From NCBI RefSeq assembly GCF_051903065.1, contig NZ_CP178438.1: a stretch of 64,000 nt of DNA. The stretch is one strand, 5' to 3'. The notes below the pieces were generated by a model. That model did no database searches, was not told the DNA's origin, and saw only the letters and a program-made list of their open reading frames with translations. Positions 62,122 to 63,628 of this stretch are shown here, one piece after another (position 1 is the first letter of the stretch; each line of letters begins with the position of its first letter). A program made the translations under genes and the position numbers. The stretch comes from Escherichia coli. GTDB taxonomy: Bacteria > Pseudomonadota > Gammaproteobacteria > Enterobacterales > Enterobacteriaceae.

Positions 62122-62463
62122 TAAGTTCTGAACCTTCTTATCAAAAATAGATGTGAAGGATTAAGTAAGACATCTGGCAAATAGCCCGCAATAAACGCGG
62201 GCTGTTTGCTTCCTTGGGCGGATACGAGTTTTATTATCGTCTTAATGATTTCCACATATTAAAAGCAAGTATGCTTTCAAAACACAATTATAAAAAATCC
62301 CACCAACAATATAAGTTTTTATAAAATTAAATATAAGATTATGACTTTAGAATATTTTTATTTCTAATAGACGAGATTTTTCCTGTTATGATATAATATG
62401 CCGAATTAACACATGTTAACGATTTACCAGTAATGTAAATAAATTTTCGAGGAGATCATTCCA

Positions 62464-63180
62464 GTGGGACGTAAATGGGCCAATATTGTTGCTAAAAAAA
62501 CGGCTAAAGACGGTGCAACGTCTAAAATTTATGCAAAATTCGGTGTAGAAATCTATGCTGCTGCTAAACAAGGTGAACCCGATCCAGAATTAAACACATC
62601 TTTAAAATTCGTTATTGAACGTGCAAAACAGGCACAAGTTCCAAAGCACGTTATTGATAAAGCAATTGATAAAGCCAAAGGCGGCGGAGATGAAACATTC
62701 GTGCAGGGCCGTTATGAAGGCTTTGGCCCTAATGGCTCAATGATTATCGCCGAGACATTGACTTCAAATGTTAACCGTACGATTGCTAACGTTCGCACAA
62801 TTTTCAATAAAAAAGGCGGCAATATCGGAGCGGCAGGTTCTGTCAGCTATATGTTTGACAATACGGGTGTGATTGTATTTAAAGGATCAGACCCTGACCA
62901 TATTTTTGAAATTTTACTTGAAGCTGAAGTTGATGTTCGTGATGTGACTGAAGAAGAAGGTAACATTGTTATTTATACTGAACCTACTGACCTTCATAAA
63001 GGAATCGCGGCTCTAAAAGCAGCTGGAATCACTGAGTTCTCAACAACAGAATTAGAAATGATTGCTCAATCAGAAGTTGAGCTTTCCCCAGAAGATTTAG
63101 AAATCTTTGAAGGGCTTGTTGATGCCCTTGAAGATGACGACGATGTACAAAAAGTTTATCATAACGTCGCAAATCTCTAA
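62464..63180 (+). CDS. yeeN: YebC/PmpR-family transcriptional regulatory protein
   Basis: 238-aa AT-rich [30 protein letters not shown].... Confidence 0.8.
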
Positions 63181-63628
63181 TTATCTTTTAAAGAAATCTG
63201 TCTTTATGGCAGATTTCTTTAATCTCATATAATCCTTATAAAAAATATAATGTTCAACTCGTCATATTGCTTATAAAAATTCCCCCAGAGAAATAATATT
63301 TATTAAAATTCCAGGTCTTCTTTTTCTGATTACAGAAGGCAAGTGGTAATTACGTATAGTTTCCCGATAAAGACGCGACAGCAACATCCCGCATAAGGCA
63401 TTGTTCTCTTTATCTTTGTACGGTACTTCATGGAACAGAGATTTTGACCTTGCGAATCGTGATGTCTGTTGGGGAGGGCAATTTGCTCACTGAAGCGTGA
63501 GGCTCGATTAAGCGCACGAAACACAGATATCAAAAAACCCGGTCGCTTTCTACAAGGTAACCGGGTAAAAATAATTTTTATTTTTTAACTGCTCTGAGAC
63601 TCATAAAGATGCCTCAAAACTAAAATTT

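Follow-up and report, generated by a model that had tools for sequence, protein, structure and literature searches.

The AT-rich yeeN islet beside asnW in Escherichia coli: a probable origin in the Lactococcus lactis lineage

YeeN has been treated as "the E. coli YebC_II paralogue" and compared with YebC of Streptococcus pyogenes and YebC2 of Bacillus subtilis (PMC12234827, PMC11990639, PMC13284719). Escherichia coli YeeN partly rescues ribosomes stalled at pentaproline in the PURE system, with weaker activity than YebC, and its Y84A variant is inactive; in Salmonella, deletion of yeeN caused no growth phenotype even without elongation factor P (EF-P), with which YeeN was not redundant there (PMC12234827). 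YeeN and YebC were furthermore described as competing binders near the A site, an excess of either of which inhibits translation (PMC13284719). The locus itself is already known from genome-wide lists as AT-rich, predicted to be foreign and bound by H-NS. Specifically, the amn/yeeN spacer of strain K-12 is one of 78 promoter islands. H-NS binding was seen there in two data sets, those of Kahramanoglou and of Oshima (PMC3661553, Table 1, class K), and the genes with which this island is associated were flagged as foreign by IslandViewer, GIST, Nakamura 2004, Lawrence and Ochman 1998 and Price 2008 (PMC3661553). Genomic SELEX (systematic evolution of ligands by exponential enrichment) placed in the same spacer a constitutive sigma-70 promoter, TAGACG-18-TATAAT, with an HNS mark (PMC3946193). 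Here we analysed yeeN and its flanks in a 64,000-nucleotide stretch of E. coli DNA (contig NZ_CP178438.1; the whole stretch is hereafter called the window), at the end of which the gene order is amn-yeeN-asnW-yeeO, asnW being a tRNA-Asn gene. The results point to a donor in the Lactococcus lactis lineage. In the literature searched, we found no prior report of such a donor, of capture of a whole unit with stubs of its neighbours, or of a post-genus-split age or multi-site distribution of yeeN, and the word "horizontal" is absent from PMC12234827 and PMC11990639.

Relationship to lactococci and base composition

A preliminary description of the window had suggested that the AT-rich islet was of ancient horizontal origin or H-NS-bound DNA. 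Horizontal origin is strongly supported by our sequence comparisons, with the L. lactis group as the donor lineage; the word "ancient" is misleading, since acquisition appears to postdate the divergence of the enteric genera. Taken together, the islet is very probably a xenologue, that is, a yebC unit of the L. lactis lineage with stubs of its neighbours, which would have entered the enterics once after the genera split and then spread among them.

We scanned for the closest relatives of the locus with one genome per species, and 600 matching stretches were listed. Among these matches, the closest non-enteric relatives of YeeN were exclusively Streptococcaceae, with amino acid identities of 93% for L. 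taiwanensis, 84-85% for the L. garvieae group and 76-79% for Streptococcus. In a protein-database search, YeeN was 89% identical to its L. kimchii relative and 78-79% to S. pyogenes YebC, as against 40% to the E. coli paralogue YebC (PDB 1KON), and L. lactis YebC and E. coli YeeN shared one cluster at 90% identity. The coding sequence (CDS) of yeeN was 88.7% identical to that of L. lactis, and 222 of the 238 residues of the protein (93.3%) were the same. By blastn, positions 62355-63282 aligned with L. lactis (locus L092, 4888-5814) in a single block of 932 nt at 84.4% identity, and the window aligned with Citrobacter sp. R56 (L007) over 990 nt at 87.6%; the block common to this Citrobacter and L. 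lactis is 1272 nt. On these alignments, the imported block is placed at about 62355-63342, narrower than the interval 62122-63628 noted before, and about 1 kb of the AT-rich patch would be a whole gene unit (promoter, gene and terminator) acquired fairly recently from an L. lactis-like bacterium.

The trees gave the same picture. In the nucleotide tree with codon bootstrap, enteric yeeN was monophyletic (99%), the enterics were joined with L. lactis (100%), and this joint group lay inside L. taiwanensis/L. kimchii (99%). A clade in keeping with the species tree never appeared, and the protein tree agreed with the nucleotide tree. The yeeN gene tree, as reconstructed, is incongruent with the species tree, and the donor clade is identifiable.

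The composition of the islet bears out what had been seen in the letters alone. The interval 62122-63628, which is exactly the DNA from the amn stop codon (at 62121) to the adjoining asnW, has a GC content of 0.362 against a whole-window mean of 0.486. In a sliding-window check with 1507-bp windows (mean 0.486, standard deviation 0.05), this value lay outside the usual range, as only 0.38% of equal-sized windows were as low. By part, GC was 0.298 in the amn-yeeN spacer, 0.397 in the yeeN CDS and 0.356 in the yeeN-asnW spacer. At codon positions 1, 2 and 3, it was 0.57, 0.35 and 0.27 in yeeN versus 0.59, 0.45 and 0.46 in amn, and the third-position value (GC3) of yeeN was the minimum among the window's 40 non-overlapping open reading frames (ORFs) with 200 aa or more. 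The codon log-likelihood ratio per codon was -0.11 for yeeN (Lactococcus-like) versus +0.07 to +0.36 for ORFs of normal GC, although this test is not Lactococcus-specific, as other AT-rich ORFs of the window were also negative and similar to yeeN. The composition and codon usage of the islet are thus atypical for the host. Low GC is not unique to yeeN: six other AT-rich blocks with ORFs of AT-rich codon usage (GC 0.35-0.42) lie in the window, one of them beside serU and asnT and another holding a GT9 glycosyltransferase ORF (57882-58997, minus strand).

Direction of transfer and the imported transcription unit

In L. lactis, L. kimchii and L. taiwanensis, yebC stands in a single firmicute context, in the order yqeK-GNAT-rsfS-methyltransferase-HIGH_NTase1-yebC, and in the first two species yhbY-nadD lies further upstream and UDG downstream. 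The gene families of this context were seen in L. kimchii and L. lactis, and the order in L. taiwanensis was deduced from ORF lengths and nucleotide homology to L. lactis across the locus. The enteric cassettes carry broken pieces of two lactococcal neighbours. Upstream, they hold the end of a small membrane-protein gene specific to L. lactis, namely its final ~45 codons with the decayed terminator (alignment A3), and tblastn gave an E value of 1e-6 in Citrobacter for the membrane-protein stub; in the window, ~62300-62354 aligns weakly with this decayed terminator region. Downstream, they hold the promoter and the first 30-55 codons of a lactococcal GyrI-like gene, interrupted by stops (alignment A2). 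The 173-aa GyrI-like protein of L. lactis matched Citrobacter L007 over 55 aa (tblastn, E 1.5e-14) and locus L009 (E 2e-5), and its match in the window (63254-63343) was weak (E 0.2); the L. kimchii orthologue of this neighbour carries PF06445 (GyrI-like).

We polarised substitutions with other lactococci as outgroups. On the E. coli branch, third-position changes from weak (A or T) to strong (G or C) bases numbered 25 versus 7 in the opposite sense, whereas the L. lactis branch was balanced (11 versus 12); weak-to-strong changes were in excess on the enteric branches. The per-site rates on the E. coli branch lead to an equilibrium GC3 of about 0.48, and since the present GC3 is 0.27, yeeN would be early in its amelioration. 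The conserved lactococcal context, the neighbour stubs in the enterics and the weak-to-strong bias on the enteric branches together indicate transfer from Lactococcus to the enterics. A transfer in the reverse direction, in which L. lactis replaced its own yebC with an enteric copy, would fit the observation that L. lactis yebC is nearer to enteric yeeN (synonymous divergence, dS, 0.38-0.57) than to the yebC of L. taiwanensis and L. kimchii (dS ~0.96-0.98). We consider it hardly credible, because it is the enteric cassettes that hold the fragments of two lactococcal neighbours, and both L. lactis and L. kimchii have the GyrI-like gene whole and in synteny. Moreover, the composition fits Lactococcus and not the enterics, the weak-to-strong excess occurs only on the enteric branches, and an ATG start is common to all Streptococcaceae.

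Our promoter scan recovered the same TAGACG promoter as that reported for K-12 (PMC3946193), and in the alignment the L. lactis yebC promoter has the identical -35 hexamer TAGACG and the same extended -10 element, TGATATAAT. The functional promoter of yeeN is, from this alignment, most simply the donor's own, imported with the gene. In a simple scan of 61900-64000, nine promoter-like sites were counted versus 5.6 +/- 2.4 expected.

A stem-loop in the 5' untranslated region (UTR), near the predicted mRNA 5' end, was found at the equivalent place from Lactococcus to the enterics, with compensatory changes; in E. coli, a shifted TTAAC/GTTAA hairpin replaces the conserved stem-loop. In an alignment of 19 loci (A5: L002-L015, L082, L083, L090, L092 and L099), six of the 10 pairs change on both sides, and 21 cells were changed on both sides versus 10.5 +/- 2.3 in shuffles, a number that none of the 500 shuffles attained. 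The covariation score was 0.33 against at most 0.12 in slid controls. RNAalifold alone did not return this hairpin, so that its support comes only with the structure specified and the pairs counted. A match of the Rfam family STnc370 over the yeeN terminator was set aside as chance (27 bits against a gathering threshold of 54, and absent from the Salmonella, Citrobacter and L. lactis loci); in an Rfam scan of 61900-64000, tRNA was the sole family, and none was found in 63343-63480. Coordinates of all features are given in Table 1.

Table 1. Features of the yeeN islet and other AT-rich blocks in the window
Feature	Position	Strand	Basis and remarks
amn 3' flank with intrinsic-terminator hairpin (arms 62183-62189 / 62197-62203)	62122..62211	+	Sequence; resident DNA, not import
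Left junction DNA, very AT-rich	62212..62354		No BLAST match to any fetched locus
Putative Lactococcus-derived block: yeeN (yebC_II) transcription unit and downstream lactococcal gene stub	62355..63342	+	blastn
yeeN promoter: -35 TAGACG (62368-62373), extended -10 TGATATAAT (62389-62397)	62368..62397	+	Promoter scan, alignment
5'UTR stem-loop, E. coli form TTAAC-ACAT-GTTAA	62406..62419	+	Sequence, covariation count
yeeN CDS, 238 aa, GTG start, Shine-Dalgarno GAGGAG (62449-62454)	62464..63180	+	Pfam, NCBIfam
yeeN terminator hairpin AAAGAAATCTG ... CAGATTTCTTT	63190..63220	+	Kept from L. lactis and L. taiwanensis to all enterics
GyrI-like gene stub: -10 box, ATG remnant at 63250, ~30 codons' worth	63226..63342	+	Alignment A2
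67-codon ORF, not a gene	63330..63533	-	No family, never annotated, frame broken
Right junction DNA, somewhat GC-richer, E. coli-specific among fetched loci	63343..63480		No match to fetched loci
Older asnW 3' flank, common to Salmonella	63481..63627	-	72-81% identity to two Salmonella asn-tRNA 3' flank regions
asnW terminator hairpin (arms 63537-63543 / 63560-63566), then minus-strand T run	within 63481..63627		Sequence
asnW, tRNA-Asn, anticodon GTT	63628..63703	-	ARAGORN; Rfam tRNA, 72.6 bits; RefSeq annotation
Further AT-rich blocks	13200-17500, 28000-29200, 38000-39000, 41500-44000, 45600-48000, 57400-59100		

The minus-strand ORF at 63330-63533, for which the preliminary description had seen no support, is on present sequence evidence not a gene. 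It matched no family in Pfam or NCBIfam, none of the listed RefSeq E. coli records has an annotated CDS at this place, and 1-bp indels give different frames and ORF lengths in four E. coli strains, K-12-like, Sakai and ATCC 25922 being named among them. The ORF begins at the border of the GyrI-like stub and extends into the older flank of asnW.

Age, spread and insertion site

The synonymous differences between genera date the acquisition. Between E. coli and other enterics, the proportion of synonymous differences (pS; nucleotide identity in brackets) in yeeN was 0.23-0.32 for Citrobacter (91-93%), 0.35 for Salmonella (90.5%) and 0.43 for Kluyvera genomosp. 1 (87%), and the value for L. lactis was 0.40 (88.7%). 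For amn, pS between E. coli and Salmonella, Enterobacter or Kluyvera cryocrescens was 0.74-0.75 (75-78%), and for yeeO it was 0.70-0.79 (71-75%); these two genes are saturated at synonymous sites between genera and yeeN is not, and E. coli yeeN is less distant from a lactococcal gene than the amn genes of E. coli and Salmonella are from each other. Since pS of yeeN lies far below that of amn and yeeO, its acquisition would postdate the genus splits. On the other hand, yeeN is carried by 5401 of 5426 complete E. coli genomes at 97.8-100% identity, and because it is nearly universal in the species, the import would be older than the diversification of E. coli. The locus has a near-identical counterpart in 5400 of the 5426 genomes. 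Compared with ~5300 other E. coli genomes, the yeeN-asnW spacer (63181-63627) of the window showed 91-94% identity, and 99% or more was reached in just six genomes; for yeeN, the identity is 98-99%, and the spacer differences are clustered single-nucleotide polymorphisms and small indels.

These data bear directly on vertical descent, that is, on yeeN being an old inherited yebC paralogue whose AT-richness is held by selection or H-NS-related constraints. YebC_II proteins have been reported as widespread in Gammaproteobacteria (PMC11990639, PMC3403352), and yeeN is core in E. coli and under strong purifying selection (dN/dS, the ratio of nonsynonymous to synonymous divergence, ~0.05-0.09). Nevertheless, the reading is already contradicted and deserves practically no credence: the CDS is closer to that of L. 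lactis than amn is between enteric genera, enteric yeeN is nested inside Lactococcus, the loci differ among genera with the amn-asnW site empty in Enterobacter and Kluyvera cryocrescens, and substitutions move towards higher GC instead of being held low.

Only a cassette of 0.9-1.1 kb is homologous between E. coli and Citrobacter, Superficieibacter, Kluyvera, Shimwellia or a genome mislabelled "E. coli", and the genes flanking yeeN differ at nearly every enteric locus. Its neighbours elsewhere, unrelated genes of housekeeping or island type, include icd/pdeG, ychF with an old-yellow-enzyme gene, glutathione peroxidase, and arsBC with GNAT, among others. In Salmonella, yeeN follows yjhX and a yjhP-like methyltransferase gene and borders a hypervariable stretch, the position being the distal end of the leuX hypervariable island (PMC9927239, PMC5699537). 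Such different insertion sites, together with varying cassette end-points, would be expected if each enteric lineage had acquired the gene independently from lactococci. We regard this as improbable, because enteric yeeN is monophyletic, and the GTG start (fixed in all enterics and absent from all Streptococcaceae, the one site of this kind), 11 sites fixed in the enterics and differing from L. lactis, and enteric-specific features of the upstream sequence are common to the enterics. A single entry followed by spread therefore remains our preferred reading. It may tentatively be extended, with a good deal less confidence, to yeeN as a hitch-hiking single-gene module that moved again and again between genera to at least 10 sites and was kept by selection for a second ribosome-rescue factor, one of Gram-positive type, its dose set by H-NS and the conserved 5'UTR hairpin; the sites are often integration hot spots or borders of defence islands (asnW, icd, an ars island and, in the leuX island, the distal end).

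Some further observations concern the individual enteric loci. The modules of the Salmonella stretch varied by strain (L084-L091, L102 and L103, a set that includes a related Logan contig) and comprised ScoMcrA-like HNH, HsdR/type I restriction-modification (R-M), BREX, McrBC, DndB/C, EcoRII R-M, CP4-like, CbtA/CbeA, RadC and AlpA. A 241-aa Salmonella YeeN variant proved to be an alternative start call at the same locus. More than 1400 sequences in clusters labelled Salmonella enterica are partial YeeN at a contig end (P0015, 465; P0022, 974; P0007, 20), with the break near codon 17 in the four contigs examined (L085-L088) and representative contigs of 733-818 bp in two clusters, which suggests a repeat boundary or a drop of coverage in the very AT-rich upstream DNA. 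Two genomes with yeeN sites of their own are apparently mislabelled, namely 'E. coli SCPM-O-B-8794' (L002), whose icd and pdeG are only 86% identical to those of E. coli, and the 4.26-Mb 'Salmonella Choleraesuis' AP025685.1 (L082), whose Amn is 84% identical.

The insertion site could be compared with its empty form. Enterobacter hormaechei and Kluyvera cryocrescens have shiA-amn, 110-120 bp, asnW and yeeO, and this spacer holds only their own amn terminator, at the same place as in E. coli, and the canonical asn-tRNA terminator. In E. coli, ~1.27 kb of extra DNA stands between the amn terminator (62183-62203) and 63480. The asnW-proximal DNA at 63481-63627 would predate the import, because it is common to Salmonella asn-tRNA flanks; a start of the insert exactly at the asnW 3' end was dropped, as these proximal 147 bp are older flank in the Salmonella comparison.

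The cassette may have arrived as cargo of an integrative element that targeted asnW and has since decayed, a route compatible with the lactococcal origin; delivery of this kind is possible, and the leuX and icd contexts point that way, although we hold it to be rather doubtful. Genes for asn-tRNA are known as integration sites of islands, such as the high-pathogenicity island (HPI) at asnT and the pks island at asnW. The canonical terminator found after asnU, after asnV and after the asnW of Enterobacter and Kluyvera is missing from E. coli asnW, yeeN of L002 adjoins icd, a prophage attachment site, and ~280 bp of unmatched DNA flank the lactococcal block. Flanking of the pks island by the asnW region (PMC11707995) and the place of Salmonella yeeN at the distal end of the leuX island are in line with this route. 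Against it, no integrase was found, there being no ORF with any family between yeeN and asnW, and a search with the 17-mer of the tRNA 3' end at up to three mismatches returned only asnT and asnW themselves, with no repeat at a far boundary. Furthermore, the 147-bp flank common to Salmonella separates the tRNA from the insert, and none of the 15 other enteric loci scanned has a tRNA closer than 4 kb to yeeN, so that tRNA proximity is not a general property of the cassette.

As for the asn-tRNA genes themselves, E. coli asnW and asnT (window 63450-63627 and 49328-49490) do not have the canonical terminator AAAAAGCCTGC...GCAGGCTTTTT, which stands directly after asnV, Enterobacter asnW and asnU and Kluyvera asnW, and the E. 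coli asnU terminator is a close variant, AAAAGCCCGC...GCGGGCTTTTT (also compared: L001 9529-9690 and 11938-12100; L094; L096). The two genes without it, asnW and asnT, are the known island integration sites. In strain ATCC 25922 (B2, L101), the tRNA-Asn beside yeeN is followed immediately by nac and cbl, not by yeeO and asnU, which indicates a rearrangement between asn-tRNA copies.

YeeN, H-NS and related systems

YeeN is a member of the YebC/TACO1 family and of its YebC_II (YebC2) subfamily. Pfam domains PF20772 (TACO1_YebC_N, 1.7e-25) and PF01709 (1.6e-51) span residues 3-235, and in NCBIfam the protein scored 352 bits with NF009044 (YebC_II-type, cutoff 196) and 240 bits with NF001030 (the YebC_I equivalog), just under its cutoff of 243. 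A grouping with YebC2 rather than YebC_I is also found in PMC11990639. Residue Y84 is present in the YeeN sequence of the window, in which yeeN is 99% identical at the nucleotide level to that of a K-12-like strain; the protein that relieved polyproline stalling in vitro was that of K-12 (PMC12234827).

We propose the following course of events. A piece of about 1 kb from the L. lactis lineage, comprising a complete YebC_II/YebC2 unit with its own promoter, 5'UTR hairpin, CDS and terminator and two broken neighbour stubs, would have entered Enterobacteriaceae once, after the genera had diverged, and its start codon would have changed from ATG to GTG. The cassette would then have passed from genus to genus, settling at different chromosomal sites; in E. 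coli, it would have been inserted into the short amn-asnW spacer and then fixed in the species. The AT-richness of the islet would be the base composition of the donor, so far slightly shifted towards E. coli values. Going by the K-12 literature, H-NS would bind the AT-rich spacer and yeeN would be transcribed from the imported promoter, and the product would act close to the A site and peptidyl-transferase centre of the ribosome, relieving stalling at polyproline and other slow peptide bonds, though less effectively than its native paralogue YebC, with which it would compete. We infer that H-NS would thereby keep the dose of this foreign and potentially interfering A-site competitor low.

Several points weigh against this account. 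The taxon sample was incomplete, and the representatives of E. coli, E. albertii and E. fergusonii were not among the matches listed. The trees were neighbour-joining trees of 35 proteins or 24 nucleotide sequences. The pS comparison assumes broadly similar rates and involves only two flanking genes, amn and yeeO, which may evolve faster than the average gene. The ~280 bp of junction DNA (62212-62354 and 63343-63480) match no fetched locus, and no vehicle (plasmid, phage or integrative element) was found in plasmid and phage collections, where the only matches were chromosomes wrongly labelled as plasmids, pieces of host DNA entered as phage, and distant yebC genes of Listeria and Enterococcus. 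Finally, H-NS binding and promoter use are K-12 literature data and not data of this strain, and the link from H-NS to YeeN dose is ours alone.

If YeeN is lactococcal and was acquired after the enteric genera split, several published findings receive a simple evolutionary reading, namely the 78% identity to the S. pyogenes protein, the weaker activity than YebC on E. coli ribosomes, the lack of a deletion phenotype in Salmonella and the competition with YebC. For researchers of YebC-family translation factors, it would come as a moderate surprise that "E. coli YeeN" is essentially a lactococcal protein. The locus would also be an unusually clean case of a transcription unit from a Gram-positive bacterium that works in E. 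coli without change, its promoter, 5'UTR hairpin and terminator all being intact. Because its donor sequence is known, its early amelioration can be measured and its binding by H-NS is documented, it would be useful for studies of foreign-gene silencing and domestication. As an instance of gene transfer between phyla followed by xenogeneic silencing, it represents a gain in resolution and not in kind.

Compared with known systems, YeeN shares its Pfam architecture and NCBIfam subfamily with the YebC_II/YebC2 factors (S. pyogenes YebC, B. subtilis YebC2/YeeI and human TACO1); unlike these, E. coli YeeN would be a recent import standing beside a native YebC_I. Among the tRNA-associated islands (HPI at asnT, pks at asnW and the leuX islands), the yeeN islet is similar in lying beside an integration-hot-spot tRNA-Asn, and its Salmonella copy borders the leuX island; it differs in lacking both an integrase and flanking direct repeats, in carrying only one cargo gene, in measuring about 1 kb and in having an older flank before the tRNA. 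Finally, as regards the H-NS-silenced AT-rich islets and promoter islands of K-12, the amn/yeeN spacer is itself on the published list of promoter islands (PMC3661553). Here, however, it can be specified which donor was involved, how far the import extends and where the working promoter came from, and whereas excess promoters evolved in the recipient were proposed in PMC3661553, the promoter of yeeN would have come with the gene.

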